Of a DNA stretch of 62,714 nt, positions 1 to 61,861 are shown one piece after another (positions within the stretch are counted from its first letter, which is position 1; each line of letters starts with the position of its first letter). Source of the stretch: an uncultured bacterium. GTDB taxonomy: Bacteria > CAZSTA01. Location: the NCBI GenBank assembly GCA_964609495.1, contig CAZSTA010000001.1, forward strand, positions 1-62,714. Direction: 5' to 3'. The translations under genes and the position numbers were made by a program. The notes under the pieces were generated by a model. That model did no database searches, had not been told where the DNA came from, and saw only the letters and a program-made list of their open reading frames with translations.

Positions 1-107
1 CGGTTCAGAAGCAGGTAGGACATAAGTGTCTAACCACTACTCAAATATACTCTAACTTTGCGCCAGAGCAGGTTAGGGAGGCTTATGATAAGGCTGGATT
101 CGAATAA
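1..107 (+). CDS. 3' end of a tyrosine recombinase/integrase (XerC/D-like), truncated by the window start
   Basis: Frame from nt 3 reads VQKQVGHKCLTTTQIYSNFAPEQVREAYDKAGFE*, matching the box II GH...TTxIY signature with the catalytic Tyr. Not in the ORF track. Confidence 0.75.
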   Translation, partial: VQKQVGHKCLTTTQIYSNFAPEQVREAYDKAGFE

Positions 108-173
108 ACTTACTATTAGCGTACTGTATAACAGTTCACAAATATACTGGTGAAATAGGAAAAAGAGCATTTA

Positions 174-544
174 GGAGCATATAAAATCGGGGATCTACTA
201 GGCGGCTAACCTCCTGTCCCAATGATCATCCCAATCTTCATTGAAGATTTTCACTCTCAATCTAGCAATACTATCTACTCCCTTCCTGCTCCAGATCACT
301 CCCCCTCCTCCAGCTCTATTATTCGCTTATATAACTCCCGCTTTATCTCCTGTCCCAAGCTATCTACATATCTTTCTATCTCATTGGCATTCTTATATTC
401 ATCTTTTAATTCTAGCTTCATCCGAAATTCTACCTCTCTTATTTCTTCTTCTCCTTTTCTTAATTTACTCCCTTCCTATTTCAGATCATTTCTCTCCTCT
501 TGTCCATACCTCTTTTTTTTCAAGATCCCCAATTTATATGCTTC
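174..544 (-). mobile_element. Internally deleted IS (MITE-like), probably ISLre2-family derived
   Basis: Imperfect terminal inverted repeats GGAGCATATAAAATCGGGGATCT (174-196) and the reverse complement of 523-544, GAAGCATATAAATTGGGGATCT. The minus strand holds out-of-frame fragments MKLELKDEYKNANEIERYVDSLGQEIKRELY (from 421) and WSRKGVDSIARLRVKIFNEDWDDHW (ending 198), which resemble transposase N- and C-termini. No target duplication seen. Confidence 0.6.
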
Positions 545-545
545 C

Positions 546-590
546 ACTTTATCCATTTCATACTGTAACTATATCTGCGATTAATTATGA
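546..590 (-). repeat. 45-bp repeat, left copy, inverted relative to 2509-2553
   Basis: Reverse complement TCATAATTAATCGCAGATATAGTTACAGTATGAAATGGATAAAGT matches 2509-2553 at 42/45 positions. Confidence 0.9.
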
Positions 591-692
591 CCACCCTCTC
601 ATTTAATTCAGCTTATGATATCTTATCCCAAAAATTATTTTTCTAATTATAACCTAAATTTTATTTTTTTACTAAAATTTTATATTTTCTTC

Positions 693-1735: not shown

Positions 1736-2354
1736 AACAGGAAGGGCACAAAGCATAATGAAGAAGGGAAGCGAAGCAATGAAGAAGCTAACACTGGCTT
1801 CTCAGCAATTGCTTACCAAAGAGCTTCCGCCCTGGTATGAACTTACTGAAGGCGAAAAGAAGCTGTGCGAGTTCTTCACCTGCGATCCAGTCCCAGGCTT
1901 ACCAGTTGAGATATTCTCCGATATCGCACCAAGACAGACCAGGATGGAACATATCATCTATTGCCAGCTTTATAGCCTATCCTACCCTTATGGCTACAAG
2001 ATATGTAAAATCGGCTACGGCACTTTGCAGAAGAGATTGCCTTGGTATGATAACTTTATCAAAGGGGAGGCCACGCCCACTTCGCTAAATGGTATTAAGA
2101 AAGCTATACGCCTTCTTCAAAGGAATAATTATATTTTTCGCCTTACCGACAGAATAGGCAATACAGGTAGCTGGTATAGGGTGCTCTCAGTTCACGAGGT
2201 TCTCTCGGAGCGAGGACTTAAAAATAGTTTACTCCAAGACCTTAGTAGTATGCCATTAAGTGGTATACCACTAAGTAGCATGCCACTAAAGGAAATACCC
2301 GAAAAAACAAGAAAAGCGGTAGCTGAATTGTTGGAAGGTTCGACTCTTCCTTAG
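1722..2354 (+). CDS. Hypothetical winged-helix-like DNA-binding protein coupled to parA (partition or replication candidate)
   Basis: Overlaps the parA stop. The segment EHIIYCQLYSLSY..CKIGYGTLQKRL..SLNGIKKAIRLLQRNNYI..GSWYRV resembles Rep-type HTH proteins. No ParB CTPase motif seen. Confidence 0.55.
   Translation: MIRDRTGRAQSIMKKGSEAMKKLTLASQQLLTKELPPWYELTEGEKKLCEFFTCDPVPGLPVEIFSDIAPRQTRMEHIIYCQLYSLSYPYGYKICKIGYGTLQKRLPWYDNFIKGEATPTSLNGIKKAIRLLQRNNYIFRLTDRIGNTGSWYRVLSVHEVLSERGLKNSLLQDLSSMPLSGIPLSSMPLKEIPEKTRKAVAELLEGSTLP
2244..2288 (+). repeat. Three tandem 15-bp palindromic units inside the wHTH gene (iteron or parS-like)
   Basis: AGTAGTATGCCATTA / AGTGGTATACCACTA / AGTAGCATGCCACTA. The central AGTGGTATACCACT is a perfect 14-bp palindrome. 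Confidence 0.85.
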
Positions 2355-2691: not shown

Positions 2692-2711
2692 GTGGTTGAC
2701 ATCTTAACCAC
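2692..2711 (+). promoter_or_regulatory. Palindrome upstream of binding-protein gene 1 (operator or hairpin candidate)
   Basis: GTGGTTGACATCTTAACCAC has GTGGTT/AACCAC arms and contains TTGACA. It is conserved upstream of the paralog at 4825-4847. Confidence 0.4.
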
Positions 2712-2748
2712 GCGAATCTCAAAAAATTATAAAGGAGGCTTTAAAGTT

Positions 2749-4656
2749 ATGAGGAGATCATTACTTCTAATAGTCCTGTGTGTAAGCTTAATGTTGGTTA
2801 TTATCCCTACTTCCTTTGCTCAGAAGTATAACGAGGCACCTATGCTGGCAGAATTGGTAAAGGAAGGTAAGCTCCTCCCGGTGGAGGAGAGACTTCCAGA
2901 GGAACCATTCGTGGTAGAGCCGATAGAAGAAGTTGGACGCTACGGAGGAACGTTGCGGTTAGGTATGGTATCGGCTTCTTCTTGGGCTGAAGCTTCACAA
3001 TTTACGATGGAGTATATAATTATGAGGGATCAAAGGGATATGACCAAGTTAGTTCCCAGTATATGTGAGAGCTGGGAATTCTCCAATGAGGGGAAAACCT
3101 TTACTTTGCACTTTAGAAAAGGATTAAAGTGGTCCGATGGCCATCCCTTTACCGCCGATGACATACTCTTCTGGTGGGAAGATGTTATTATGAACGATGA
3201 GCTTAATCCAGTAAAGCCCACCAAATGGAGACCTGGGGGAGAATTGATGAATGTGGAAAAGGTGGATGACTGTACTGTCAATTACCACTTTGCGGTGCCT
3301 TACTATGCGGCGGTTTATCTCTTTGCTCAGGTAGCTGGGCATGGAAGTCAGGGGCAATGTTATATGCCAAAACATGCCCTAACCCAATATCACATAAAAT
3401 ATAACCCCGAAGCTCAGAAACTGGCCGAGGAGGCAGGATATGATACCTGGTGGCAACTATTTCAATATAAAGCACAACCTACAAGCACTGATAGTCAGCA
3501 ACATCCTGACATTCCTGTTATGGGAGCTTGGGCAATAAAGGAACTGCTTCCTGACGGAGCCATATGGGAACGTAACCCCTACTACTTTAAGGTAGATACC
3601 GCAGGAAATCAGCTACCTTATGTCGATCGTCTTAGAGGAGTTATGTTTAGGGATGCTCCTACCCTCCTTATGCTTATGACTACTGGTCAGATAGATTTCA
3701 GTAATGGTTGGGGGACTGGCATAGTTGATTATCCTACCCTTGTAAAAGGTGCGGAAGCGGGGGGATATCAATATCGGTTAGCCAAGGATCTATGGCCTTC
3801 AGCAGGTGTATATCACTTTAACCATAACTATAAGGAGAATCCAGCTTTAACAGAGTTTCTCAGAAACAAGAAATTCAGGCAAGCTCTATCTCTCGCTATC
3901 GATCGAGAGGAGATCGTAAAAGTAGTGGGTCTGGGAAATGGAGTTCCCTATCAAGCTACTTGTAATCCTGATTGCAGTTTCTATGAGGAGCGTTGGTCTA
4001 AAGCCTATACTGAGTATGATCCTGAGAGAGCCAACGCGATGTTGGATGAGATAGGCTTAACCGAGCGGGATGCTGAAGGATATCGCTTATTGCCCAACGG
4101 AGAACCTCTATCGTTAATCGTAGAGCAAACCGAGGATATGGCTTATTGGGTTCCCATAAATGAGCTGGTGAAGGAATACTGGGCAGACGTTGGGATCCGA
4201 GTGATTCCCAAGGTAGTAGAGCGTAGCCTTTACTGGACTCGCCTCGGTGCAGGAGAGATGCAGATTAATCTCTGGGTTTTAGATGCTTTTACGGAATACT
4301 GCCTTATCCCTAACCAAATGTCCAATCTACGAGCTTGGTGGTGGGCTCCCGAATGGTGGGCCTGGTGGGATACAGGAGGAGAATCAGGAGAAGAGCCTCC
4401 AGAAAAAATAAAGGAGATGCTCTCCTTATGTGATCAGATCCCCTCTCTTCCTCCCGAGGAGATGAGGAAGGTAGCCAAGCAGATACTTGATATGGAGGCT
4501 GAGGAGCTTTGGATGGTTGGAACCATAGGCTTCATAGGAAAACCCGCCATAGCGAAGATTGGCCTGGGAAATGTCAACAACGAAGCTCCTGGTGATGCCT
4601 GGGATGTTTGTGGCTCAAGAGCCGCGTGGGTAGAGCAAATATTCTGGAAGGAGTAA
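2749..4656 (+). CDS. ABC transporter substrate-binding protein, family 5 (peptide/oligosaccharide type), copy 1
   Basis: Signal peptide MRRSLLLIVLCVSLMLVIIPTSFA, YNEAPMLAELV..GKLLPVEERLP, and LRKGLKWSDGHPFTADD-like motif. ATG at 2749 follows GGAGG and gives the same length as copy 2. Confidence 0.9.
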   Translation: MRRSLLLIVLCVSLMLVIIPTSFAQKYNEAPMLAELVKEGKLLPVEERLPEEPFVVEPIEEVGRYGGTLRLGMVSASSWAEASQFTMEYIIMRDQRDMTKLVPSICESWEFSNEGKTFTLHFRKGLKWSDGHPFTADDILFWWEDVIMNDELNPVKPTKWRPGGELMNVEKVDDCTVNYHFAVPYYAAVYLFAQVAGHGSQGQCYMPKHALTQYHIKYNPEAQKLAEEAGYDTWWQLFQYKAQPTSTDSQQHPDIPVMGAWAIKELLPDGAIWERNPYYFKVDTAGNQLPYVDRLRGVMFRDAPTLLMLMTTGQIDFSNGWGTGIVDYPTLVKGAEAGGYQYRLAKDLWPSAGVYHFNHNYKENPALTEFLRNKKFRQALSLAIDREEIVKVVGLGNGVPYQATCNPDCSFYEERWSKAYTEYDPERANAMLDEIGLTERDAEGYRLLPNGEPLSLIVEQTEDMAYWVPINELVKEYWADVGIRVIPKVVERSLYWTRLGAGEMQINLWVLDAFTEYCLIPNQMSNLRAWWWAPEWWAWWDTGGESGEEPPEKIKEMLSLCDQIPSLPPEEMRKVAKQILDMEAEELWMVGTIGFIGKPAIAKIGLGNVNNEAPGDAWDVCGSRAAWVEQIFWKE

Positions 4657-4668
4657 GATAACTACTGA

Positions 4669-4695
4669 GGGAGATACTAGTTCTTAGTATCTCCC
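4669..4695 (+). terminator. Stem-loop after SBP copy 1
   Basis: GGGAGATACTA-gttct-TAGTATCTCCC, 11-bp stem. Confidence 0.65.
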
Positions 4696-4824
4696 GAATA
4701 GCTCCTAATTACTAACTATCAAAATTGAAGTAAGAGATATTACAGGCCAAAAAAGGAGGTGATGTAGATAAGATAAATAGTTTTCATATAGCAGAGAAGA
4801 GACTAGTCTAGCAAGCCTTTCTAG

Positions 4825-4847
4825 TGTGGTTGACATCTTAAACCACA
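4825..4847 (+). promoter_or_regulatory. Palindrome upstream of binding-protein gene 2
   Basis: TGTGGTT-gacatctta-AACCACA within a duplicated upstream region. Confidence 0.4.
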
Positions 4848-4884
4848 CAAATCTCAAAAAAATTATGAAGGAGGTTTTAAAATT

Positions 4885-6792
4885 ATGAGGAGATCATTAC
4901 CTCTAGTAGTCTTGTGTGTAAGCTTAATGTTGGTTGTTATACCCACTTCCTTTGCTCAGAAGTATAACGAGGCACCTATGCTGGCAGAATTGGTAAAGGA
5001 AGGTAAGCTCCCCCCGGTGGAGGAGAGGCTTCCAGAGGAGCCATTCGTATTAGAGCCGATAGAAATGATTGGACGATATGGAGGAACGGTGCGGGCTGCT
5101 ATGGTATCTGCTGCTACATGGTGCGAACCCTCACAATATACGATGGAGTGTATGATTATGAGGGATCAAAGGGATATAACTAAGTTGATCCCCAATATAT
5201 GCAAGAGCTGGGAATTCTCTAACGAAGGGAAGACCTTTACCTTGCATCTGAGGAAGGGATTGAAGTGGTCCGATGGTCATCTATTTACAACAGATGACAT
5301 ACTTTTCTGGTGGGAAGATTATATCCTGAACGATGAGATTGTTCCCGTAAAGCCCTCCCAGTGGAGACCTGGGGGAGAATTAATGAAGGTGGAAAAGGTG
5401 GATGACTATACCGTCAATTTCCATTTTGGGGTGCCTTACTATGCATCGCTCTATTTCTTTGCCCAAGTAGCTGGGTGGGGAGTTCAGGGACAATGTTATA
5501 TGCCGAAACATGCCCTAACCCAATATCACATAAAATATAACCCCGAAGCTCAGGAACTGGCCGAAGAGGAAGGATATGATTATTGGTGGCAGCTATTTCT
5601 ATATAAAGCACTACCTAGGAGCCGTGATGATCAGCAACATCCTGACATTCCTGTTCTGGGGGCTTGGGCAGTGAAGGAAGTGCTTCCTGACGGAGTTATA
5701 TGGGAACGTAATCCCTACTACTTCAAGGTAGATACCGCAGGCAATCAGCTGCCTTATGTCGATCGTCTTAGAGGGGTTATATTCAGAGATGCGGCTACCC
5801 TCATTATGCTTATGACTACTGGTCAGATAGATCTCAATTATGGTTGGGGAACTGGTATAATTGATTATCCTACCCTTGTGAAAAATGCGGAAGTGGGGGG
5901 ATATGAATACTGGTTAGCCAAGGATATATGGCCTTCAGCAGGTGTATATCACTTTAACCATAACTATAAGGATAATCCAGCTTTAACAGAGTTTCTCAGA
6001 AACAAAACGTTTAGACAAGCTCTATCCCTTGCCATTAATCGAGAGGAGATCATAAAAGTAGTGGGGATGGGAAATGGAGTTGCCTATCAGGCTACCTGTA
6101 ATCCTGATTGCAGTTTCTATGAGGAGCGTTGGTCTAAAGCCTATATTGAGTATGATCCTGAGAGAGCCAACGCGATGTTGGATGAGATAGGCTTAACCGA
6201 GCGGGATGCTGAAGGATATCGCTTATTGCCCAACGGAGAACCTCTATCGTTAATCGTAGAGCAAACCGAGGATATGGCTTATTGGGTTCCCATAAATGAG
6301 CTGGTGAAGGAATACTGGGCAGACGTTGGGATCCGAGTGATTCCCAAGGTAGTAGAGCGTAGCCTTTACTGGACTCGCCTCGGTGCAGGAGAGATGCAGA
6401 TTAATCTCTGGGTTTTAGATGGTTTCACGGAATACTGCCTTATCCCTAACCGAATGTCCAATCTACGAGCTTGGTGGTGGGCTCCTGAATGGTGGACCTG
6501 GTGGGATACAGGAGGAGAAGCAGGGGAAGAGCCTCCAGAAAAAATAAAGGAGATGCTCTCCTTATGTGATAAAAGTCCCTATCTTTCTCCAGAAGAAGTG
6601 AGAGAAGTAGCCAAGCAGGTATTTGACTTGCAAGCTGAGGAGCTTTGGATGGTTGGAACCATAGGCTTCATAGGAAAACCTGCGATAGCGAAGGTTGGCC
6701 TAGGAAATATCAACAAGACCGCTCCTGGTGATAGCCATGATGTCGGTGGCTCAAGAGCCGGGTGGCCAGAGCAAGTATTCTGGAAGGAATAA
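4885..6792 (+). CDS. ABC transporter substrate-binding protein, family 5, copy 2
   Basis: Close paralog of 2749-4656 with the same motifs and length (635 aa). Confidence 0.9.
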   Translation: MRRSLPLVVLCVSLMLVVIPTSFAQKYNEAPMLAELVKEGKLPPVEERLPEEPFVLEPIEMIGRYGGTVRAAMVSAATWCEPSQYTMECMIMRDQRDITKLIPNICKSWEFSNEGKTFTLHLRKGLKWSDGHLFTTDDILFWWEDYILNDEIVPVKPSQWRPGGELMKVEKVDDYTVNFHFGVPYYASLYFFAQVAGWGVQGQCYMPKHALTQYHIKYNPEAQELAEEEGYDYWWQLFLYKALPRSRDDQQHPDIPVLGAWAVKEVLPDGVIWERNPYYFKVDTAGNQLPYVDRLRGVIFRDAATLIMLMTTGQIDLNYGWGTGIIDYPTLVKNAEVGGYEYWLAKDIWPSAGVYHFNHNYKDNPALTEFLRNKTFRQALSLAINREEIIKVVGMGNGVAYQATCNPDCSFYEERWSKAYIEYDPERANAMLDEIGLTERDAEGYRLLPNGEPLSLIVEQTEDMAYWVPINELVKEYWADVGIRVIPKVVERSLYWTRLGAGEMQINLWVLDGFTEYCLIPNRMSNLRAWWWAPEWWTWWDTGGEAGEEPPEKIKEMLSLCDKSPYLSPEEVREVAKQVFDLQAEELWMVGTIGFIGKPAIAKVGLGNINKTAPGDSHDVGGSRAGWPEQVFWKE

Positions 6793-9067: not shown

Positions 9068-11107
9068 TTGATGAATAAGAAATGGTTTCAAAGGAGTTAT
9101 AGGCGTAATTTGGTAGATATGCATATTGCTGATTGGGATGAGAAGTTCCTTTCAAGGTTTGATCCTAAAACCTATGTAGATCTCCTAGAGTTAGCTCAGG
9201 TGAGTGCGGCTATGGTATATGCCAATTCCGCGGTAGGCAATTGTTATTGGCCTACAAAGGTAGGGCATATGCACAAGGGACTAAGGGGGAGAGATATCCT
9301 GAGTGAGATCATCGAACTATGTCATCAGAGAGAGATAGATGTGATAATTTATTATGTTTTGATCTATAACAACTGGGCGTATGAGAATAATCCCCAGTGG
9401 AGGATAATCAAAGCAGATGGGAAGGAAGCGACAGCAGATGGTCGGTTTGGAGTTTGTTGTCCCAACTCTGGATATCGAGATTTTGCGGTAGCCGAGATAG
9501 AGGATTTCTGCAGTAACTATGATTTTGAAGGCATATTCTTCGATATGACTTTCTGGCCTCACATCTGCTATTGCTCATCTTGTCAAGAGAGATACAAGAA
9601 GGAGGTAGGAAAGGAACTTCCTCAGATCGTCGATTGGGAGGATCCTGATTGGGTGAAGTTCCAGAGGAAACGGGAGGAATGGATAACGGAATTTGCTAAT
9701 CTAGCTACCTCTACCGCAAAGAGGATAAAGTCTGAAGTTACGGTAGATCACCAATTCTCTACCTGTATAGGGGACTTTAGACAGGGAGTAACTGCAGAAA
9801 TAGCTAAGGCATGTGATTATACTGGAGGAGATTTCTACGGAGGGCTATTGCAGGAATCTTTCATCTGCAAGTTATTCTATAACCTTACACCTAATAAGCC
9901 CTTTGAATTTCATACCTCTAGGTGTCCTAACCTAAAAGATCATATTACGATGAGGTCTGAGGAGCTAATGGAAGCTCATGTATATTCAGCATTAGCCAAT
10001 AACGGTGCTTTTCTCTTCATTGATGCTATTGATCCCATAGGGACCTTGAATAAAGATGTCTATGAGATGATGGGAAGGGTCTTTGGTGAAACGAGGGCTT
10101 ATGAGAAATATCTGGGAGGTGAGCTTTGTCAAGACATTGGGATATATTTCAGTTTCGCTTCGAAGCTTCTAACCCTTCAAGGCTTATCCCACTTAGAAGC
10201 TTCAATAAATGTAGCTAAGTCTCTTCTGAATGAGAATATCCCCTTCGGAGTGATCACTAAGGATGATCTAAAGGATCTATCTAACTATCAGGTAATCGTT
10301 CTTCCCAAGGTCTTAATGATGGATGAAGAAGAAGTGAAGGCTCTTAGAGAATATGTAGCCTCTGGTGGCAGTCTCTATGTAAGTGGTTCTGCTTCTCTCC
10401 TTGATAAGGATGGAAACAAACATAAGGACTTTATGCTTGCTGATGTCTTAGGGGTATCATATCTGGGAGAGACGAAGGAGAGATTAACCTATATCGCTCC
10501 CACTTCAAGAGCTTCGGAGCTCTTCCCGAATATCTCCTCGGAATATCCCCTTACCATATTCGGACCTCAGATAAAAGCAAAACCAGCTAATGAGGACGAA
10601 GTATTAGCTACCATTACTCTCCCCTATACTGATCCCGCTGATCATACTAAGTTCGCTTCTATCCATTCTAATCCCCCTGGCATTCCTACTGAATATCCTG
10701 CTATTGTTATGAGGAGCTTTGGCAAGGGTAAGGTAGTATGGGTTGCTGGGGATTTAGAGCTGATGAAGTATGATCCCCAGAGGAAGGTATTCACCAATCT
10801 GATTAAATCACTAGCTCAAAAACCTTTCTCCTTTGAGTCAGATGCTCCTAAGTCGGTAGAGATAACTCTATTTCATCAGGGGGAGAGTAAGAGGTATATC
10901 ATCAACTTCCTCAATTTTCAGGAGGAGTTACCCAATATTCCTATCTCAGGGATTACTTGTAGGATTAAGCTAGAGGGGAAGAAAGCAACTAAGTTGGTAA
11001 AGTTACCAGAGGAGGAAGAGATTCCTTTTGAGCTGAAGGGGAATTACGTTGAATTTAAGACTCCTCAACTAGAAACATTCTTGATGTTAGCATTAAATTA
11101 CGAATAA
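9068..11107 (+). CDS. GHL6/GH151-like glycoside hydrolase with class I GATase-like trimerisation domain, copy 1
   Basis: YWPTKVGHMH..L.GRDIL.E.IELCH, CCPNSGY, GIFFDM, ICYCSSC and YQVIVLP..LMM....ALREYV.SGG. Substrate not determinable. The start may be the ATG at 9071. Confidence 0.7.
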   Translation: MMNKKWFQRSYRRNLVDMHIADWDEKFLSRFDPKTYVDLLELAQVSAAMVYANSAVGNCYWPTKVGHMHKGLRGRDILSEIIELCHQREIDVIIYYVLIYNNWAYENNPQWRIIKADGKEATADGRFGVCCPNSGYRDFAVAEIEDFCSNYDFEGIFFDMTFWPHICYCSSCQERYKKEVGKELPQIVDWEDPDWVKFQRKREEWITEFANLATSTAKRIKSEVTVDHQFSTCIGDFRQGVTAEIAKACDYTGGDFYGGLLQESFICKLFYNLTPNKPFEFHTSRCPNLKDHITMRSEELMEAHVYSALANNGAFLFIDAIDPIGTLNKDVYEMMGRVFGETRAYEKYLGGELCQDIGIYFSFASKLLTLQGLSHLEASINVAKSLLNENIPFGVITKDDLKDLSNYQVIVLPKVLMMDEEEVKALREYVASGGSLYVSGSASLLDKDGNKHKDFMLADVLGVSYLGETKERLTYIAPTSRASELFPNISSEYPLTIFGPQIKAKPANEDEVLATITLPYTDPADHTKFASIHSNPPGIPTEYPAIVMRSFGKGKVVWVAGDLELMKYDPQRKVFTNLIKSLAQKPFSFESDAPKSVEITLFHQGESKRYIINFLNFQEELPNIPISGITCRIKLEGKKATKLVKLPEEEEIPFELKGNYVEFKTPQLETFLMLALNYE

Positions 11108-11215
11108 TAAAAGGGGGTGTTGATTTCTCTATTGCTCAAAGCCGACAGATTTTCTTCTATGGCGAAGGAACAATAAACGATAGGTGATAAATTAATATAA
11201 TTAAAGGGAGGCTTT

Positions 11216-13297
11216 GTGATGGATAAGAAGTGGTTTCAAAGGAGTTATAGGCGTAATTTAGTAGATATGCATATTACTGATTGGGATGAGAAGTTTCTTT
11301 CAGAGTTTGATCCTAAGGCTTATGTGGATCTCCTGGAGTTAGCTCAGGTAAGCGCAGCTATGGTTTATGCTAATTCCCATGTAGGTAATTGCTATTGGCC
11401 TACGAAGGTGGGACATATGCACGAGGGACTAAAGAGGAGAGATATCCTAGGTGAGATCATAGAGCTATGTCACCAAAGAGGGATGGATTTTATAGTCTAT
11501 TATAGTTTGATCTATAACAACTGGGCGTATGAGAATAATCCCCAGTGGAGGATAATCAAAGCAGATGGGAAGGAAGCGGCAGCAAGTAGCCGTTATGGAG
11601 TTTGTTGTCCCAACTCTGGATATCGAGATTTTGCGGTAGCTCAAATAGAGGAGTTCTGCAGTAACTATGATTTTGAGGGAATATTCTTTGATATGACCTT
11701 CTGGCCTCATATCTGCTATTGCTCGTCTTGTCAAGAGAGATACAAGAAGGAGGTAGAAAAGGAGCTTCCTCGGATCGTCGATTGGGAGGATCCTGATTGG
11801 GTGAAGTTCCAGAGGAAACGGGAAGAGTGGTTAACAGAATTTGCCAATCTAGCTACTTCTACCGCAAAGAGGATAAAACCTGAAGTTACGGTAGATCACC
11901 AATTCTCTACCTCTATAGCGGGCTCTGGACGTGGAGTAACTGCAGGGATAGCTAAGGCATGCGATTATACTGGTGGGGATTTCTATGGAGGGCTATTACA
12001 GCAATCCTTCATCTGTAAGTTATTCTATAACCTTACCCCTAACAAGCCCTTTGAATTTCATACCTCTAGATGTCCTAACCTAAGGGATCATACTACAATG
12101 AAATCTGAAGAGCTAATGGAAGCTCATGTATATTCAGGATTAGCAAATAATGGCGCTTTTCTCTTCATTGATGCCATTGATCCCATAGGGACCTTGAATA
12201 AGGATGTCTATGAGATGATGGGGAGGGTCTATGGCGAAACGAAGGCTTATGAGGAATATCTAGGAGGTGAGCTTTGCCAAGACGTAGGGATATATTTCAG
12301 TTTTGCTTCAAAGTTCAACCCCCTAGATAATGGAAAAAATATCTCAGAACTGAAACGTGGCTACTTTAGAGAGCAACCTCATTTAGAAACTTCAGTAAAT
12401 GTAGTTAAGTCTCTTCTGAACGAGAATATTCCCTTCGGAGTGATCACTAAGGAGGATCTAAAGGATCTGTCTAACTATCAGGTAATCGTTCTTCCCAAGG
12501 TCTTAATGATGGATGAAGAGGAAGTGAAGGCTCTTAGAGAATATGTCGCTTCTGGTGGCAGTCTCTATGTAAGTGGATCGGCTTCTCTTCTTGATAAAGA
12601 CGGAAACAAGCAGAAAGATTTTATGCTGGCTGATGTCTTGGGAGTATCATATCTGGGAGAGACGAAGGAGAGATTAACCTATATCGCTCCCACTTCGAAA
12701 GTTGCTGAGCTATTTCCCAATGTCTCCTCCGAGTATCCCCTTACCATCTTCGGACCTCAGATAAAAGCAAAACCAGCTAATGAAGATGAGGTATTAGCTA
12801 CTATCACTCTACCCTATACCGATCCTGTTGATCATACTAAGTTCGCCTCTATTCACTCCAATCCTCCTGGCATTCCTACGGAATATCCTGCTATTGTTAT
12901 GAGGAGCTTCGGTAAGGGTAAGGCGGTATGGGTTGCGGAGGATTTAGAACTGATGAAGTATGATTCCCAGAGGGAGGTATTCACCAACCTGATCAAGTCC
13001 TTAGCTCAGAAACCTTTCTCCTTCGAGTCGGATGCTCCTAAGTCGGTAGAGATAACTCTATTCCATCAGGGGGAGAATAAGAGATATATCATTAACTTCC
13101 TCAACTTTCAGGAGGAGTTGCCCAATATTCCTGTCTCAGGGATTACTTGTAGGGTTAAATTGGAGGGGAGGAAAGCAACTAGGTTAGTGAAGTTACCAGA
13201 GGAGGAAGAGATTCCTTTCGAAGTGAAGGGAAATTACGTTGAGTTTGAGACTCCAGAGCTAGAGACATTCCTGATGTTAGCCTTAAATTATGAATAA
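11216..13297 (+). CDS. GHL6/GH151-like glycoside hydrolase, copy 2
   Basis: Close tandem paralog with ANSHVGNCYWPT. Confidence 0.7.
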   Translation: MMDKKWFQRSYRRNLVDMHITDWDEKFLSEFDPKAYVDLLELAQVSAAMVYANSHVGNCYWPTKVGHMHEGLKRRDILGEIIELCHQRGMDFIVYYSLIYNNWAYENNPQWRIIKADGKEAAASSRYGVCCPNSGYRDFAVAQIEEFCSNYDFEGIFFDMTFWPHICYCSSCQERYKKEVEKELPRIVDWEDPDWVKFQRKREEWLTEFANLATSTAKRIKPEVTVDHQFSTSIAGSGRGVTAGIAKACDYTGGDFYGGLLQQSFICKLFYNLTPNKPFEFHTSRCPNLRDHTTMKSEELMEAHVYSGLANNGAFLFIDAIDPIGTLNKDVYEMMGRVYGETKAYEEYLGGELCQDVGIYFSFASKFNPLDNGKNISELKRGYFREQPHLETSVNVVKSLLNENIPFGVITKEDLKDLSNYQVIVLPKVLMMDEEEVKALREYVASGGSLYVSGSASLLDKDGNKQKDFMLADVLGVSYLGETKERLTYIAPTSKVAELFPNVSSEYPLTIFGPQIKAKPANEDEVLATITLPYTDPVDHTKFASIHSNPPGIPTEYPAIVMRSFGKGKAVWVAEDLELMKYDSQREVFTNLIKSLAQKPFSFESDAPKSVEITLFHQGENKRYIINFLNFQEELPNIPVSGITCRVKLEGRKATRLVKLPEEEEIPFEVKGNYVEFETPELETFLMLALNYE

Positions 13298-13406
13298 TAA
13301 AGGGGGTGTTGATTTCTTTATTGCTCAAAGCCGATAGATTTTCTTCTATGGCGAAGGGACAATATGAGCGATAGGTGATAAATTAACATAATTAAAAGGA
13401 GGCTTT

Positions 13407-15491
13407 TTGATGGATAAGAAGTGGTTTCAGAAGAGTTATAGGCGTAATTTGACGGATATGCATATTACTGACTGGAATGAGGAGTTCCTTTCAAAGTTTG
13501 ATCCTAAGACCTATGTGGATCTCCTAGAGTTAGCTCAGGTGAAGTCAGCTATGGTTTATGCCAATTCCCACGTGGGTAACTGCTATTGGCCTACGAAGGT
13601 GGGACATATGCACGAGGGATTAAAGGGTAGGGATATCCTGGGTGAGATGATTGAGCAATGCCACCAGAGGGGGATGGATTTCATAGTCTATTACAGTCTG
13701 ATCTTTAACAACTGGGCGTATGAGAATAATCCCTCGTGGAGGATAATTAGAGCAGATGGGAAGGAAGCAGCCGCAGATAGACGCTATGGAGTTTGTTGTC
13801 CCAATTCCGGATATCGAGATTTTGCTGTAGCTGAGATAGAGGATTTCTGCAGTAACTATGATTTTGAGGGAATATTCTTCGATATGACTTTCTGGCCTCA
13901 TATCTGCTATTGCTCGTCTTGTCAAGAGAGATACAGGAAGGAGGTAGGAAAGGAACTTCCTCGGATCGTCAATTGGGAGGATCCAGAGTGGGTGAAGTTC
14001 CAGAGGAAGCGGGAGGAATGGTTAACAGAATTTACCAAGCTAGCTACCTTTACGGCAAAAAGGGTAAAGCCTGGAGTTGCAGTAGAAAATCAATTCTCTA
14101 CCTCCATAGCTAACTTTGGACAGGGAGTAACTGCAGAAATAGGTAAGACAAGTGATTATGCTGGTGGGGATTTCTATGGAGGGCTATTGCAGGAATCCTT
14201 CATCTGCAAGTTATACTATAACCTTACCCCTAATAAGCCCTTTGAGTTTATGACTTCTAGGTGCATTCATCTAAGTGATCATACCACAAGGAAGTCTGAG
14301 GAGCTAATGAAAGTTCATGCCTATTCGGCATTAGCTAATGATGGTGCATTTCTCTTTATTGATGCCATTGATCCCGTAGGGACCATGAATAGGGATGTCT
14401 ATGAGATTATGGGGAGGGTCTTTGGCGAAACGAAGGCTTATGAGAAATATCTAGGAGGTGATCTTTGCCAAGACGTAGCGATATATTTCAGTTTTGCCTC
14501 GAAGTTTAATCCCGCAGATAACGGGAAGAATATCTCAGAACTGAAACGTGGCTTCTTTAGTGATCAACCTCACTTAGAAACTTCAGTAAATGCAGTTAAG
14601 TCCCTTCTGAACGAGAATATCCCCTTCGGAGTGATCACTAAGGATGATCTCAAGGATCTATCCGATTATCAAGTCATCGTTCTTCCCAAGGTCTTGATGA
14701 TGGATGAAGAGGAAGTGAAGGCTCTCAGAGAATTTGTGGCTTCCGGTGGCAGTCTCTATGCAAGCGGTTCTGCTTCACTTCTCGATAAAGACGGGAACAA
14801 ACAGAAAGATTTTATGCTCGCTGATGTCTTAGGGGTATCATATCTAGGAGAGACAAAGGAGAGATTAACCTATATCGCTCCCACTTCAAAAGCTGCTGAG
14901 CTCTTCCCGAATATCTCCTCCGAATATCCCCTGACCATCTTCGGGCCTCAAATAAAAGCAAAGCCAGTTAACCAGGAGGAGGTATTAGCCACCATTACCC
15001 TCCCCTATACTGATCCAGCTGATCATACTAAGTTCTCCTCTATACATTCCAATCCCCCTGGTATCCCTACTGAATATCCTGCTGTTATCTTGAGAGACTT
15101 TGGCAAAGGTAAGGTAGTATGGGTTGCGGGAGATTTGGAGATGATGAAGTATGATCCCCAGAGGAAGGTATTCATCAATTTGATTAAGTCACTAGCTCAA
15201 AAACCTTTCTCCTTCGAAGCAGATGCTCCTAAGTCAGTAGAGATAACTTTATTTCATCAGGAAGAGAATAAGAGATATATCATTAATTTCCTCAACTTTC
15301 AGGAAGAGTTACCCAATATCCCCATCTCAGGGATTACTTGTAGGGTTAAGCTAGAGGGGAAGAAACCAACTAAGTTAATGAAGTTACCAGGGGAGGAAGA
15401 AATTCCCTTTGAACTGAAGGGAAATTACGTTGAATTTAGGACTCCCGAGCTGGAGACATTCCTGATGTTAGCATTAAATTATGAACAGTGA
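13407..15491 (+). CDS. GHL6/GH151-like glycoside hydrolase, copy 3
   Basis: Close tandem paralog. The upstream intergenic region is a near copy of the one before copy 2. Confidence 0.7.
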   Translation: MMDKKWFQKSYRRNLTDMHITDWNEEFLSKFDPKTYVDLLELAQVKSAMVYANSHVGNCYWPTKVGHMHEGLKGRDILGEMIEQCHQRGMDFIVYYSLIFNNWAYENNPSWRIIRADGKEAAADRRYGVCCPNSGYRDFAVAEIEDFCSNYDFEGIFFDMTFWPHICYCSSCQERYRKEVGKELPRIVNWEDPEWVKFQRKREEWLTEFTKLATFTAKRVKPGVAVENQFSTSIANFGQGVTAEIGKTSDYAGGDFYGGLLQESFICKLYYNLTPNKPFEFMTSRCIHLSDHTTRKSEELMKVHAYSALANDGAFLFIDAIDPVGTMNRDVYEIMGRVFGETKAYEKYLGGDLCQDVAIYFSFASKFNPADNGKNISELKRGFFSDQPHLETSVNAVKSLLNENIPFGVITKDDLKDLSDYQVIVLPKVLMMDEEEVKALREFVASGGSLYASGSASLLDKDGNKQKDFMLADVLGVSYLGETKERLTYIAPTSKAAELFPNISSEYPLTIFGPQIKAKPVNQEEVLATITLPYTDPADHTKFSSIHSNPPGIPTEYPAVILRDFGKGKVVWVAGDLEMMKYDPQRKVFINLIKSLAQKPFSFEADAPKSVEITLFHQEENKRYIINFLNFQEELPNIPISGITCRVKLEGKKPTKLMKLPGEEEIPFELKGNYVEFRTPELETFLMLALNYEQ

Positions 15492-28359: not shown

Positions 28360-28598
28360 GTCAACGACCCCGCCCATAAAGGGCGAGGCTTGAAGGACAA
28401 GCCTACGTTGACTAGGGGGCTAACGCTAGTTAGCAAGTAGTTAAGGAGGAGAGATACATACACACCTTGAGATGCTCCTTAAGTCTCAAGCTCTGTGGCT
28501 TGGTGGTTAAACAGTTCTGTGAGGTAGAAACAGTGCTGCCAGGCTTAAAAAACCCTTCTTAACCTCCCCGATGAGGACTAACCCACCGCAAGGTGGAG
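28360..28598 (+). ncRNA. IscB-associated omegaRNA (HEARO-type) scaffold
   Basis: GTCAACGACCCCGCCCATAAAGGGCGAGGCTTG...GTTGACTAG...ACACCTTGAGATGCTCCTTAAGTCTCAAGCTCTGTGG...GGTTAAACAGTTCTG...AACAGTGC follows the order of conserved HEARO/omegaRNA blocks as I recall them. Confidence 0.8.
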
Positions 28599-29639: not shown

Positions 29640-31838
29640 ATGTCTAAGAAGAGAGATAAAGAGAGGAAACAAGAGATAAAAGATAAGCTGACAGACGGAC
29701 AAATCGAGATACAGCCATTTTATCATGATTTGAGAAATGAGATAGTTCAGCCCAGAAATATAATTGTTGAAACCAAATATTTCTGGGACAAATGGAAGCC
29801 TCGCTTAGGACCAACCTTGACGGTAATAATAATGGAACTAAGAAGAAGATGCTATTACAATCCTGAGACTGGTGAGAGGAGAGATTACTGCTGGCCATCC
29901 TTGCAGACTATAGCCGATGCTTGTGGAATTAGTGTTAGCACATTACAGCGGGAGTTGAAGAGACCAGAAGCAAAGCTGTTCATCAGGATAGAACCAAGAT
30001 ATATCTATAATGAGAAGATTAGTCGCATGAGCAGAACCAGTAACATTTATTATGTGGCAATGGACGATCCACTACTTCCAGAGGACAAGGATAGATTGAA
30101 GGATGAGATAGCTGAACAGATAATCGAAAAGGAAGGACTGCAAAGAGATTTTGAACTAGACACAAAAGATCAGTCAGAGAAAGACTCTGGACATAAAGGT
30201 CAATTTGATGATCATATAGCCTGGTCAATTTGCACAAGTAAGAGATCCTTAGAAGAGATCCCAGAATCGTTAAACGATGCAGGATCATCCAACGCTGATA
30301 AGAGTCAAGAAAGGAATAAAGGAAGGGAACATCCCTACTCAGATAACAATAGGATAAGTGATATCTCTACCCAGACTCTAAATAAGGAGAATGAAGAATC
30401 TAGCAGAACAAAAGACATAGATCCATTAGTAGATATAGTGGCCCATGAAATAGCTGAGGAGCTAAGAGATATTGAGAGTATCAACTTCTACCGATTAGTT
30501 GTGTTAAAATGCCCAACCGGTATGATATATAAGATATTAGCACAGGTGAAAGATGCTGAGAGAGTAGGGGCAATAAAGACTACCCCAGCAAGACTGTTCA
30601 CAGCAGCTATCAAGAATGCAGCAAAAGAAGCTGGTATTGATCTAACAAGTAAGATAAAGTTTAAGAGACGAAGGGAATGGGGACCTAAGGCTAAGAAACC
30701 ATGGAGATTGGCCAGTGAGCTAGCAGAGGAATTAGACGACATAAAGGGAATGGCATATTACAATAAAGTAGCGAAGGAATGTCCAGTAAGAATGCTCCGA
30801 TGGTGTTTAGAGGAGGTAAAGAGACAAGGCAGGACAGTAGAGAATAAGGGAGCATTATTCAACTTCCTAGTTAAGAGGGAAATGAATGCTTTAGAGAGTA
30901 AGAAACAAGAAGAGGGAAAGATGATTAGCCCAGAGGATTTACATATAAGGATAGTTGAGTTAAAGAAACAATTAGGAAAAGAAGATGTGATAACAATAGA
31001 AAAGCCGAGAGCAATAGATAAAGTTGAGCAAGAAGAACAGAGAAGGGATGTGAAGCCGAGGCTAGGAGTGGATAACCCGGAAGATGATGATCCCGAAACC
31101 GTTGCCCAACTAGTGAGGGAAAGCTTAGGGCTGAGCGAGGAAGAATACGAAGCCGAAAAGGCGAAGGCTTTGGCAGGAAAGAGTTTAGCAGTTGAGGAGA
31201 TTACTGAAATTTGTGAAGGAGATTGTGATGAGGGGGCTTTTCTCACTGCTAAGGAAGAGATGATAGCTGAAGATATAGCCAAGACGTTAGGTGATTATCA
31301 TTCGTGGGGTTTCTTTCATTTGGTAGTAAGATACTGCCCTTCCGATATGATATATCGCAATTTGGGACTGGTTAAGGAAGAGCAGAATATCAAGCGAAAT
31401 AGGGGGGCAATGTTCACCTATCTGATAAAGAAGGATGCGGCAGAGTTGGGCATTGATCTATCAGGAAAGGACAATCCCGAACCCAGAGAGTGGGGCGAGC
31501 CTGTAGATGAACCGAAGGAGATAGCAAGAATATTGGCGAAGAAGCTTGATGATCCAGAGGCCCTCGCTTTCTATCACAAAGCCGCAAAGTTGTGTCCTCT
31601 AAAGATGCTACGCTGGGCTTACTTTGAGACGATGCAGTGTGGAAGAAGAGTCAAAAACAAGGCTGCCTATTTCAACCGCCTACTTCTGTTCAAGATGAAA
31701 CAGGCTGGAGCTGACTTTGTGGGCGGTGTGACTATCAAGGAGGCAGAAAAACGGAGACGGGAAGGAGAGAAGCCACCTAGCGACAAGGCTTTGGTGGCTT
31801 TCTTGGAAGAACTGAGAAAGGTTTCTGGGAAAATTTAG
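29640..31838 (+). CDS. Putative replication initiator: N-terminal wHTH plus four repeats of a ~65-aa helical domain
   Basis: YCWPSLQTIADACGISVSTLQRELK..FI..RTSNIYY is typical of Rep HTH domains. Repeated units A..lA..L.D....fy..v...CP..M......vk......n.ga.F. GGAGGTG RBS region. Confidence 0.65.
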   Translation: MSKKRDKERKQEIKDKLTDGQIEIQPFYHDLRNEIVQPRNIIVETKYFWDKWKPRLGPTLTVIIMELRRRCYYNPETGERRDYCWPSLQTIADACGISVSTLQRELKRPEAKLFIRIEPRYIYNEKISRMSRTSNIYYVAMDDPLLPEDKDRLKDEIAEQIIEKEGLQRDFELDTKDQSEKDSGHKGQFDDHIAWSICTSKRSLEEIPESLNDAGSSNADKSQERNKGREHPYSDNNRISDISTQTLNKENEESSRTKDIDPLVDIVAHEIAEELRDIESINFYRLVVLKCPTGMIYKILAQVKDAERVGAIKTTPARLFTAAIKNAAKEAGIDLTSKIKFKRRREWGPKAKKPWRLASELAEELDDIKGMAYYNKVAKECPVRMLRWCLEEVKRQGRTVENKGALFNFLVKREMNALESKKQEEGKMISPEDLHIRIVELKKQLGKEDVITIEKPRAIDKVEQEEQRRDVKPRLGVDNPEDDDPETVAQLVRESLGLSEEEYEAEKAKALAGKSLAVEEITEICEGDCDEGAFLTAKEEMIAEDIAKTLGDYHSWGFFHLVVRYCPSDMIYRNLGLVKEEQNIKRNRGAMFTYLIKKDAAELGIDLSGKDNPEPREWGEPVDEPKEIARILAKKLDDPEALAFYHKAAKLCPLKMLRWAYFETMQCGRRVKNKAAYFNRLLLFKMKQAGADFVGGVTIKEAEKRRREGEKPPSDKALVAFLEELRKVSGKI

Positions 31839-35652: not shown

Positions 35653-35766
35653 TTTCATCGGCTCGGTGGAAGATAGAGTTATAACTGAAGCTTTCTTTGT
35701 TTTAGGAGCCTGATAGCATCAAAACACCGAACCCGTACCTCCTATAGTTTGGATGCCTTATCCTAT

Positions 35767-35810
35767 AGTAGTAGGCCACTTAGTAGTATACCACTTAGTG
35801 GTACACTACT
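35767..35810. repeat. Three 14-bp palindromic units with 15-bp period, intergenic, same family as 2244-2288
   Basis: AGTAGTAGGCCACT-T-AGTAGTATACCACT-T-AGTGGTACACTACT. Confidence 0.85.
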
Positions 35811-36070
35811 ATAACTTCTTATCCTATTCCTCCCAGAATCTCTATTTCCTACTTCTCTCAATCCTTCTATCCCAAGGCCACTGATTACCTCTTTTCCTTA
35901 CAGTACCTAAGTTTAAGCCGTTATTCCGTGATTAGTCCTATAGCCTAATGATCTTTGTCTTATTAATATGGCTATCGAAGATTTTTCCTCTGCTTCCTAA
36001 CTGTAGAGGATGAGGCATGATACTCCGATTAGAAGTTCAGAAACCATCAGGAGATTAGGAGCAGATCACT

Positions 36071-60971: not shown

Positions 60972-61155
60972 AGAAATAATTTCCTTAATATTTTATATTA
61001 TATGAAGATTATCTCGATAAAATATCAAAAATATAACTAATTAAGCCTTATCTCTAATCTACTGGCTAAATTAGCTTGTCTAGAATATATCATATATTTC
61101 TTGTTTTGTCAAGCTCTAAATTGCCGAATCTGAAGAAATCAGGGATACATCTCCT

Positions 61156-61608
61156 TTAAATGAAAGGATTTATGACATCCAACAATCCATATTTCTCGAA
61201 ATGAGAGGTATCCTCGGTATATACTAACCTTATCCCATTATCCAACATAGTTGCTATAAGATAGACATCGAAGGTGTTTTCTCTCCTCACACCGAAATGT
61301 CTCATTAACTCTACTGTCCTGAATATAGTATTAGCGATAGGATATATTTTAGCTATACCGCGGGAGTTAAGATAGATCTCTACCTCTCTCAACGCCTGCT
61401 GAGGGGTTAAGGGATTCTTCAGCTTCCGAGGATTAGTTACCACCGAATAGAACTCCAAGATGTTCTGAGGAGAGATACAAGCTGGAAGCTCTCCCCTACT
61501 AGCTCTATCTCTTAGTTCTCTCGCTTCATCATAGTGAGGAGAGAGTGTGTCATGAGCATATACTAGAATATTGGTATCTAATAACCCCGCCTCAGATGAG
61601 GTCCTCAT
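61156..61608 (-). CDS. vapC: PIN-domain (VapC-like) toxin
   Basis: LLDTNILVYA, EFY.VVT and FD..L.AT. Confidence 0.85.
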   Translation of the reverse strand: MRTSSEAGLLDTNILVYAHDTLSPHYDEARELRDRASRGELPACISPQNILEFYSVVTNPRKLKNPLTPQQALREVEIYLNSRGIAKIYPIANTIFRTVELMRHFGVRRENTFDVYLIATMLDNGIRLVYTEDTSHFEKYGLLDVINPFI

Positions 61609-61861
61609 ATATCTTCTCCCTAGTTAAAGAACCTTTTACTCCTAGAGAATAAGCTCTGAAGTCGTTCCTTTGAATATCTTCAATGTTACTTCGCTTATCC
61701 TTGTCTAAAGCCTCTAGTCTCTCAAAATCATCTAAGTTGATTATCACTACCATGGGCCTTCCTCTTCGCTCAACAATAATTCGCTCGTGAGCGTAAGCTA
61801 CTCGACCTATGATTTCGGAGAATTTTCTCCTTACCTCTACCACACTTAATGTTCTTTTCAT
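61592..61861 (-). CDS. Phd/YefM-family antitoxin
   Basis: MKRTLSVVEVRRKFSEII..IIVERRGRPMVVII. Overlaps the toxin start. Confidence 0.85.
   Translation of the reverse strand: MKRTLSVVEVRRKFSEIIGRVAYAHERIIVERRGRPMVVIINLDDFERLEALDKDKRSNIEDIQRNDFRAYSLGVKGSLTREKIYEDLI

Follow-up and report, generated by a model that had tools for sequence, protein, structure and literature searches.

A 15-bp-period palindromic array inside the gene of a putative ParA partner, with a second copy in non-coding DNA of a plasmid-like replicon

Two palindromic arrays and the parA-orf210 operon

The DNA analysed here is a 62,714-nt stretch from an uncultured bacterium (GenBank assembly GCA_964609495.1, contig CAZSTA010000001.1). 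The whole stretch is referred to as the window, and coordinates are window positions unless another locus is named. Near its left end, a gene for a ParA-type ATPase is followed by an open reading frame (ORF) for a 210-aa protein, ORF210. The 3' coding part of orf210 contains an array of palindromic units with a 15-bp period (array 1), and a second array of the same units (array 2) is located in a non-coding region on the other side of the replicon. The features of the two array regions are as follows.

758–1735, + strand: gene for the ParA-type ATPase, likely true start ATG at 767; deviant Walker A motif KGGTAKTT and N-terminal MerR-type helix-turn-helix (HTH)
1722–2354, + strand: gene for ORF210, 210 aa, with a predicted N-terminal helix, winged helix (residues ~74–154), disordered linker encoded by the array and short C-terminal helix
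2244–2288, no strand: array 1, three 15-bp units, each consisting of the near-palindrome AGTRGYATRCYACT (14 bp) and an A as spacer, within the 3' part of the ORF210 coding sequence
2289–2303: degenerate fourth unit, AAGGAAATACCCGAA, encoding KEIPE; variable also in a strain variant (L097, see below)
35767–35810, inverted with respect to array 1 (spacer T on the + strand): array 2, three 14-bp palindrome units with a 15-bp period, non-coding
35757–35766 and 35818–35827: 10-bp perfect direct repeat CTTATCCTAT, flanking array 2

A first-pass annotation of the sequence had described three tandem 15-bp units around a perfect palindrome at 2244–2288, placed them inside the gene partnering parA, in a stretch translated as a low-complexity linker, and proposed that they are the cognate site of the encoded protein, i.e. 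an origin or a centromere. The description was confirmed in all its parts. The + strand units read, in order, AGTAGTATGCCATTA, AGTGGTATACCACTA and AGTAGCATGCCACTA; the middle unit holds AGTGGTATACCACT at 2259–2272, a perfect 14-bp palindrome, and the outer units are near-palindromes matching the 14-bp consensus AGTRGYATRCYACT, which was built from this array. A repeat finder reported a 3-copy, 15-nt family together with an overlapping imperfect palindrome (2242–2289, 81% complementarity), and Tandem Repeats Finder (TRF) gave a period of 15, 3.1 copies and a score of 64, the highest in the window. The array is in frame with ORF210, the start of which overlaps the stop of the ParA gene by 14 nt, and encodes the peptide SSMPLSGIPLSSMPL. 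In an AlphaFold2 model, the array-encoded residues 175–189 lie within a low-confidence unstructured stretch (residues 164–190), with the winged helix before it and the short C-terminal helix after it, so that 'linker' is a fair word for this peptide. Contig L001 is identical to the window across array 1.

When up to two mismatches to the unit pattern were allowed, seven matches were found in the window against 1.75–1.84 expected, and six of these form two triplets with exact 15-bp spacing, at 2244/2259/2274 and 35767/35782/35797. The chance expectation is ~1.5e-9 triplets per replicon, and no triplet appeared in 301 Markov simulations. Because the search pattern came from array 1, the independent event is the second triplet, 35767–35810, which reads AGTAGTAGGCCACT T AGTAGTATACCACT T AGTGGTACACTACT. 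Together, the two arrays are the two top-scoring tandem repeats in the window.

Array 2 lies in a 418-bp gap between convergent genes, namely an ABC-3 permease gene on the + strand (stop at 35652) and a GH127 gene on the − strand (stop at 36071), and the block 35764–35813 around it is a 50-bp imperfect palindrome. The two array regions are alike only within the arrays (best match 34 nt, 88%, reverse orientation), and no other coding sequence in the window resembles ORF210. A decayed gene copy, such as the remnant of an orf210 paralogue, was therefore rejected as the source of array 2. Since array 2 keeps the 15-bp register without a reading frame, the period belongs to the DNA site and not to the pentapeptide. 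No terminator-like site, T-run or promoter signal was found at array 2 by scanner. Single-strand folding of both ~50-bp blocks is better than that of shuffled sequences (z of about −2.7 to −2.8), with weak (−8 to −10 kcal/mol), mismatched stems. Contigs from three other samples carry array 2 in identical form and are thus uninformative on its evolution.

Two further observations concern the surroundings of array 2. The flanking pair of CTTATCCTAT looks like a target-site duplication, which would fit an insertion of the array; alternatively, it may represent an accessory site. The GH127 gene directly to the right (36071–37966) has a GC content of ~0.51 as opposed to 0.43, which suggests a separate acquisition at the convergent junction.

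Homology of ORF210 and conservation of the arrays

The winged helix predicted for residues 74–154 of ORF210 has a helix-strand-helix-helix-strand-strand topology, with predicted local distance difference test (pLDDT) values of ~54–88 over 10-residue blocks. Foldseek searches with the model returned only generic winged-helix proteins (MarR, PadR, Fur and RTP; E of ~1e-2), which cannot tell initiators, regulators and terminator proteins apart. In a word-indexed search of 5.8 billion clustered proteins, only the near-identical cluster of ORF210 itself was retrieved, and a tblastn search of PLSDB gave nothing meaningful. An exhaustive HMMER search of 1.8 billion representatives identified three distant relatives (E = 4e-4 to 9e-4; 33–35% identity over residues 64–195): P0002 (149 aa), P0003 (502 aa) and P0004 (519 aa, with two copies of the domain). 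A repeated profile search with ORF210 added only P0002 and P0005, the latter of which carries PF04492 and aligns to ORF210 with E = 2e-5 in a pairwise comparison.

These relatives connect ORF210 with phage replication initiators. P0004 exceeds the Pfam gathering score of Phage_rep_O (PF04492; 39.1 versus 28.7 bits) and also that of HTH_36 (PF13730), P0003 exceeds that of HTH_36 and lies at the Phage_rep_O threshold, and both match the PHROG 'replication initiation O-like' (7e-11 and 2e-15). The comparison with lambda O made in the first-pass annotation thus has homology behind it, through a link that is transitive and weak. ORF210 itself shows no direct match to Phage_rep_O or HTH_36. Only ~21 residues (one helix) follow array 1 in ORF210, whereas P0003 and P0004 have ~180–200 more, and a C-terminal domain recruiting a helicase loader or helicase is absent from ORF210. 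By sequence comparison, ORF210 is best regarded as a short, divergent member of the O-like/HTH_36 winged-helix group that lacks the initiator C-terminal domain. As the direct family matches fail, it should not be filed under Phage_rep_O, ParB or RepA_N.

If array 1 functions as DNA, its palindromy should be conserved more than the peptide. This expectation, formulated in the first-pass annotation, was borne out in three ways: by a strain variant, by the distant relatives and by the non-coding units in the window and in L084. The variant, P0128 (locus L097), has 96% protein identity to ORF210 and 16 nucleotide differences in the gene, five of which fall within the 60-bp array (8.3% versus 2.1% for the remainder of the gene). 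Each of these five is a transition that alters an amino acid (I182T, S186G, M187I and P193S), the opposite of a peptide that is kept while synonymous changes break the palindrome. Within the 14-bp units the changes fit the consensus, except for a central ATA-to-ACA change, which is also present in array 2; P193S falls in the degenerate fourth unit. In unit 3, AGTAGCATGCCACT is replaced by the perfect palindrome AGTGGTATACCACT, including a paired C..G to T..A change at the symmetric positions 6 and 9. Whether compensation or conversion between units made this unit, the substitution pattern indicates selection on the DNA symmetry of the array and not on the peptide.

In all three distant relatives, arrays with a 15-bp period immediately follow the winged-helix domain. 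The units and the encoded peptides are as follows.

L082 (P0003): 10 × GGT ATA CC(G) and three AGT ATA CC units; peptide GIPRD or GIPRN
L083 (P0004): RGY ATA CCN in three arrays; peptide SIPPK or GIPPQ
L084 (P0002): AGT ATA GTC AAA TTG; peptide LSIVK, with the proline lost
L084 (also L085), 4743–4832 and 6346–6435: arrays of GAsTATAsTCAAATT with a 15-bp period, six non-coding units and the same unit in the gene

Across these loci, the peptide changes from LSGIP in ORF210 to GIPRD, SIPPK or LSIVK, and the RGTATA(C) DNA core and the 15-bp period are kept. Gly-Ile-Pro can be spelled GGT-ATA-CC, an 8-bp palindrome. In the GC-rich gene of L083, the isoleucine codons of the arrays are ATA in 13 of 13 cases, compared with 23% in the neighbouring genes (P = 4e-9), and the wobble positions of the proline codons vary freely. 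The six-unit non-coding array of L084 is located directly upstream of the operon promoter, before a gene for an ExeA-like AAA_22 ATPase, and its GAsTATAsTCAAATT unit recurs in the 3' coding end of the following gene, which encodes the 149-aa winged-helix protein.

L082 (3273–5834) and L083 (4899–7560) share a cassette of genes for a small MerR_1 protein, an ExeA-like AAA_22 ATPase (TIGR03015-like) and an O-like winged-helix protein. Their winged-helix genes contain internal arrays followed by a clear AT-rich island, and MerR-type palindromic operators are found in the promoters. The similarity between the MerR domains of the window and those of L082 and L083 is generic only. At L084, no MerR gene was called within ~5 kb upstream, and a 107-aa ORF lies downstream; the lack of a called MerR gene at this locus speaks against the MerR HTH as the binder of the arrays.

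Scans of viral sequences, with the two-unit pattern and with the family profile, gave no match, and a metagenome scan for the two-unit pattern retrieved only L096, an unrelated promoter-region repeat. At 1136–1180 of L096, a 1.5-kb contig that lacks a winged-helix gene, AAGTAGTAGACTACT occurs as three perfect 15-bp repeats. The sequence around them resembles a promoter (TTGACTTGGAGTTAACTC…) and precedes an unannotated ORF that is truncated by the contig end.

In sum, array 1 is real, far beyond chance and under DNA-level constraint, and arrays of this type co-occur with the ORF210-type family. Given this co-occurrence across four independent loci, it is probable that the arrays are the cognate sites of the ORF210-type proteins.

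The operon and the replicon

The ATPase encoded upstream of orf210 contains AAA_31 (9e-48) and CbiA (5e-21) domains and a MerR HTH at residues 9–55 (E = 2e-11), and ORF210 is the only gene coupled to it. The operon shows the general layout of a partition system: a ParA with a deviant Walker A motif and an N-terminal HTH extension, a small gene for a putative DNA-binding protein directly 3' of parA, and a repeat site at the operon 3' end. The ATPase falls outside the SopA, P1 ParA and RepA (repABC) families (TIGR03453, 142 bits versus a cut-off of 348; SopA, 75 versus 725), and its partner is not of the ParB/Spo0J type (ParBc plus HTH), ORF210 having a winged-helix fold and no Pfam match. A homologue search with ParA found one other HTH-ParA, P0077, and a ParA-based genome scan yielded only generic Soj/ParA proteins with 34–42% identity, whose gene neighbourhoods were not informative. 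Other features of the operon flanks and the replicon are as follows.

692–757, + strand: parA promoter region, TTGACT, 17-nt spacer and TAAAAT, read by eye and without a promoter scanner
546–596: left arm of a 51-nt inverted repeat, 90% complementary to the right arm
2503–2553: right arm of the same repeat, within the stretch of highest AT content in the vicinity of array 1 (73–75% AT, 2480–2570)
3–107, + strand: C-terminal end of a tyrosine recombinase gene (Phage_integrase/MrpR_C_cat; 227 aa, the rest lying across the circle junction)
29640–31838, + strand: ORF732, 732 aa, with an HTH_36 N-terminal domain, matches to PHROG 'replication initiation protein' families and four internal repeats

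Three TTGAAGAT repeats in the parA promoter region, at 704, 721 and 750, are a candidate operator for the ParA HTH. The 51-nt inverted repeat has only two copies in the window, which enclose exactly the parA-orf210 cassette, and the diverged L097 variant keeps the right arm. This repeat may mark the limits of the cassette, serve the neighbouring tyrosine recombinase as an inversion site, or belong to an origin or centromere. The intergenic region 108–757 shows an extreme C-over-G bias on the + strand (skew −0.44). Repeats of 26 nt are found at 273–298 and 463–488, and an AT-rich 26-nt tandem pair at 624–675.

Contig L094, from another sample of the same project, is identical (100%) to window positions 1–615 and 61092–62714, bridged by 1,572 bp (L094 616–2187). 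The bridge joins the window ends, and the window thus closes into a 64,286-bp circle. Within the bridge lie the remainder of an IS3 element and the 5' portion of the 227-aa tyrosine recombinase gene; the IS3-family element has been inserted between a Phd/PIN toxin–antitoxin pair (61156–61860, − strand) and the recombinase gene. Genes related to maintenance encode the recombinase, MerR-ParA, ORF210, ORF732, an XRE regulator and the Phd/PIN pair and include the IS3 element, and the remaining genes encode sugar transporters, glycoside hydrolases and redox enzymes. The circle looks like a plasmid of an uncultured anaerobe. Tandem paralogues occur at 2692–6792 and 9068–15491: two SBP_bac_5 genes (~89% DNA identity) and three consecutive GHL6/GHL10-type glycosidase genes (86–90%).

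The + strand carries the genes between the recombinase and 35652, and the − strand carries most of those between 36071 and the junction. The cumulative GC skew has a flat minimum at 750–2500 and a maximum at 35,241. Array 1 is located in the minimum plateau near the divergent switch. Array 2, in the gap between the convergent genes, is ~0.5 kb away from the maximum. Measured both ways round the circle, the distance between the arrays is 33.5 and 30.8 kb, which makes them almost antipodal. Gene-orientation switch points usually accompany origin and terminus. Gene-level skews mostly follow the coding strand, as the recombinase gene, which lies left of parA on the + strand, has a skew of +0.165 and only two of the three + strand genes in the second half have a negative skew, and the interpretation of the V-shaped skew as replication-driven was downgraded. 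Because the V largely follows gene strand, the switch points are gene-orientation switches, and they do not map an origin to within a few kb. No DnaA-box cluster was found in the window. The AT-rich stretch at 2480–2570 lies outside the ORF210 gene, 200–300 bp downstream of array 1, and no AT-rich element is present at array 2.

The internal repeats of ORF732 consist of a ~50-aa module (…CP…M…, …N.GA.F..L.K). In its N-terminal part, ORF732 matches a hypothetical protein encoded by the Leptolinea sp. HRD-7 plasmid AP024711 that adjoins an ExeA-like AAA_22 ATPase. No iterons were found next to ORF732, and no pairwise similarity to ORF210 was detectable. Judged by its domains, ORF732 appears to be a second, full-length initiator-like protein on the replicon. 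Upstream of it, in a 1.6-kb low-GC non-coding stretch, a full-length HEARO RNA was identified at 28360–28582 (+ strand; Rfam RF02033, 126.8 bits). HEARO RNAs are associated with IscB-type HNH nucleases; no IscB-sized ORF lies beside this one.

Possible role of the arrays and comparison with known systems

We propose, with a probability of roughly 0.45, that the arrays are ORF210 binding sites that serve as partition sites for ParA; we infer both the binder and the partition output. One ORF210 winged-helix dimer would occupy each 14-bp palindrome, giving three palindromes per array in a fixed 15-bp register. ORF210, the arrays and the upstream, translationally coupled MerR-ParA ATPase would constitute a plasmid segregation module, in which array-bound ORF210 would be the partition complex, the arrays would act as centromeres and nucleoid-bound ParA-ATP would move the ORF210-array complex. 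The ParA HTH probably autoregulates the parA promoter. The intragenic position of array 1 may have been inherited, if the DNA-binding domain of ORF210 derives from lambda-O-like initiators with sites in their own linker-coding part. A period that is a multiple of three allows such sites to coexist with the reading frame and to vary in number inside it. Array 2, nearly facing array 1 across the 64.3-kb circle in the gap between convergent genes, would provide a second loading point at the terminus side.

A partition role is suggested because ORF210 is the translationally coupled partner of ParA, because this ParA has the N-terminal HTH architecture of autoregulating ParA proteins, and because array 1 occupies the operon 3' end, a position it shares with P1 parS and F sopC. 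It is also suggested by the absence from ORF210 of the C-terminal domain of its initiator relatives and by the presence of the separate, full-length initiator-like ORF732 on the plasmid. Several points weigh against it. The nearest ParA relatives are Soj-type (40–45% identity), the ATPase domain being Soj-like and not of the SopA/P1 ParA clade, and in the relatives the ATPase upstream of the winged-helix gene is ExeA-like AAA_22 and not ParA. ORF210 has neither a Pfam match at E ≤ 1 nor a relevant one in NCBIfam or PHROG, its tie to O-like proteins is transitive and weak (matches of E ~4e-4), and its AlphaFold2 model is only moderately confident (mean pLDDT 65). The relatives are initiator-like, and the arrays of P0003 and P0004, followed by an AT-rich island as in ori-lambda, would by analogy favour an origin role for the ancestral arrangement. 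Finally, a centromere at the terminus has no obvious rationale.

A close alternative, to which we give clearly less than even odds, is that array 1 represents the iterons of an origin within the gene of its own origin-binding protein and that array 2 is an oriR-like site at which forks stall or terminate, with ParA merely co-transcribed or regulating initiation. The initiator matches of P0003 and P0004, with mid-gene iterons preceding the AT-rich island, point in this direction, as does a phage contig (L086) in which three copies of GGTATACCGAGTART lie in the linker of a DnaD-like replisome organiser adjoining a DnaC-like loader. In the window, the positions of the arrays at the skew minimum with its divergent switch and close to the maximum in the convergent gap, the AT-rich stretch downstream of array 1 but not at array 2, and the lack of iterons beside ORF732 when the two arrays are the top tandem repeats would all be consistent with such an origin. 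Phage SPP1 provides a precedent, with oriL inside gene 38 and an intergenic oriR (PMC6316719, PMC3485210). On the other hand, ORF210 lacks the C-terminal loader-recruiting domain and is coupled to ParA instead of a loader, no DnaA-box cluster accompanies the array, and the skew, being largely a matter of gene orientation, cannot place an origin within a few kb.

Binding of the arrays by another plasmid protein, i.e. ORF732, the MerR HTH of ParA or the neighbouring MrpR-like tyrosine recombinase, for which they would be a resolution or inversion site, is improbable. ORF732 belongs to the same broad HTH_36/replication-initiator superfamily, ParA carries an HTH of its own, parA is preceded at ~650 bp by the recombinase gene, and some recombinase sites, dif among them, lie at the terminus. 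However, L082, L083 and L084 have the arrays together with an ORF210-type gene, and neither an ORF732 homologue nor a recombinase was called within the 7–13 kb covered at these loci; ORF732 is not detectably similar to ORF210, and the MerR HTH has its counterevidence in L084, at the scope given above. Xer or Cre-type core sites have central spacers of 6–8 bp; the array units, with 7-bp arms and a 0-bp or 1-bp spacer, are unlike them, and a recombinase core site (Xer/dif, Cre/lox) was rejected. It is very improbable that the ~50-bp palindromes act solely as hairpins or cruciforms, for instance as a bidirectional terminator in the convergent gap, with no dedicated protein. Both blocks do fold better than shuffled sequences and array 2 does lie between convergent genes, but the stems are weak and mismatched, the scanner found no terminator-like site or T-run, and a hairpin leaves the 15-bp register, the palindromy of the units and the family-wide link to a winged-helix gene unexplained. 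Next to negligible is the probability that the DNA has no function of its own, array 1 being a pentapeptide low-complexity linker and array 2 a chance match or decayed gene fragment. Array 1 is predicted to encode a disordered linker, and pentapeptide repeats also occur in the relatives; this reading already appears contradicted by the comparative data, as the peptide varies but the DNA motif does not, the unit of L084 also forms a non-coding array, array codon use departs strongly from the background, array 2 has no flanking homology to orf210, and the chance expectation of such triplets is minute.

A broader view, which we consider doubtful as a whole, is that a winged-helix protein of initiator descent, which a ParA ATPase drives, uses the same array to mark the two poles of the plasmid, with one copy near the origin within its own gene and the other at the terminus. 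The same code would then serve initiation or segregation at one pole and fork arrest or terminus positioning at the other. More widely, an unrecognised O-like family may exist whose sites are spelled as pentapeptide repeats (G-I-P = GGTATACC) and which combines with interchangeable ATPases (ParA or ExeA-like AAA_22) and a MerR HTH.

If ORF210 binds the arrays, a ParA adaptor would have been made from a domain borrowed from lambda-O-type initiators, which would have brought along the habit of keeping the site in its own gene, and the recognition of replication origins and of centromeres would be linked by descent. Array 1 also illustrates how codes can overlap, since the same bases specify a linker peptide and a palindromic site, and the L097 variant points to the one under selection. 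Arrays at the origin side and the terminus side could provide a simple model of two-pole organisation in a mid-size plasmid of an uncultured anaerobe. For annotation, 15-bp-period RGTATA(C) arrays that follow a winged-helix domain may serve as pointers to the origin or centromere of plasmids and phages that lack annotation.

Sites placed within the gene of their own binder are known in principle from lambda O, SPP1 gp38, RepA_N plasmids and Bacillus subtilis parS in spo0J. The binding sites of lambda O are imperfect inverted repeats inside the gene, 3' of the part for the N-terminal winged helix, in a portion that tolerates changes in repeat number (PMC7466680). Array 1 resembles ori-lambda in that repeated dyad-symmetric sites lie in the linker-coding part after the winged helix, and the relatives of ORF210 match Phage_rep_O/TIGR01610. 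It differs in several respects: ORF210 is only 210 aa long, is coupled to ParA and has neither a C-terminal P/loader-binding domain nor a direct Phage_rep_O match; the units are 14-bp palindromes at a 15-bp period, whereas lambda has 19-bp iterons; the AT-rich stretch is outside the gene; and a second array is present far off in non-coding DNA. In the layout of its sites, the replicon is close to SPP1, which also has two sets of repeats, one in the binder's own gene and one distant and intergenic. Gp38 binds the repeats of both oriL and oriR, and forks are proposed to stall at gp38-bound oriR (PMC6316719, PMC3485210). Both SPP1 sites have an AT-rich unwinding element, which array 2 lacks, and SPP1 is a phage that encodes a helicase loader and a helicase beside gene 38, where the neighbour here is ParA. 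With respect to RTP/Ter-like terminators, which have winged-helix dimer sites at the replication terminus, array 2 lies in a convergent gap ~0.5 kb from the skew maximum; the skew largely tracks gene strand. In RepA_N initiators (pAD1 and pSK41), oriV lies in repA and the iterons are found in the central variable part, after the N-terminal winged helix; the position of the repeats is similar here, but ORF210, without any Pfam match at E ≤ 1, has no RepA_N-type domain match, and it lacks a C-terminal host-specific domain.

Among partition systems, the P1 ParA/ParB/parS and F SopA/SopB/sopC systems share with this operon an HTH-bearing Walker-type ParA, a coupled downstream gene for a putative DNA binder and a repeat site at the 3' end. 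Autoregulation by type Ia ParA proteins via their HTH has been described (PMC8465637). In contrast to P1 and F, the ATPase domain here is Soj-like and far below the SopA and RepA cut-offs, the partner is an O-like winged-helix protein and not a member of the ParB/Spo0J family, and the site lies inside the coding sequence of the partner, with a second copy at the antipode. B. subtilis parS, a palindromic centromere site, is reportedly located inside spo0J, the gene of its binder, with further copies elsewhere on the replicon (Lin and Grossman, 1998). The arrays share this intragenic position and the presence of copies elsewhere. They differ in that parS is a single 16-bp palindrome bound by a ParB-family protein, with its other copies near the origin, and here a 15-bp-period array has its other copy on the terminus side.

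Several features of the present locus are new in this comparison. The ParA partner would be an O-like winged-helix protein and not a ParB or ribbon-helix-helix protein, a Soj-like ParA ATPase is fused to a MerR HTH, and the same array is found at two nearly opposite points of a circle. In the relatives, the gene combining a winged helix with an array has a gene for an ExeA-like AAA_22 ATPase as its partner, to which L082 and L083 add a separate MerR gene. The exchange of ATPases (ParA or ExeA-like AAA_22) beside this type of gene suggests a modular, so far undescribed maintenance cassette.

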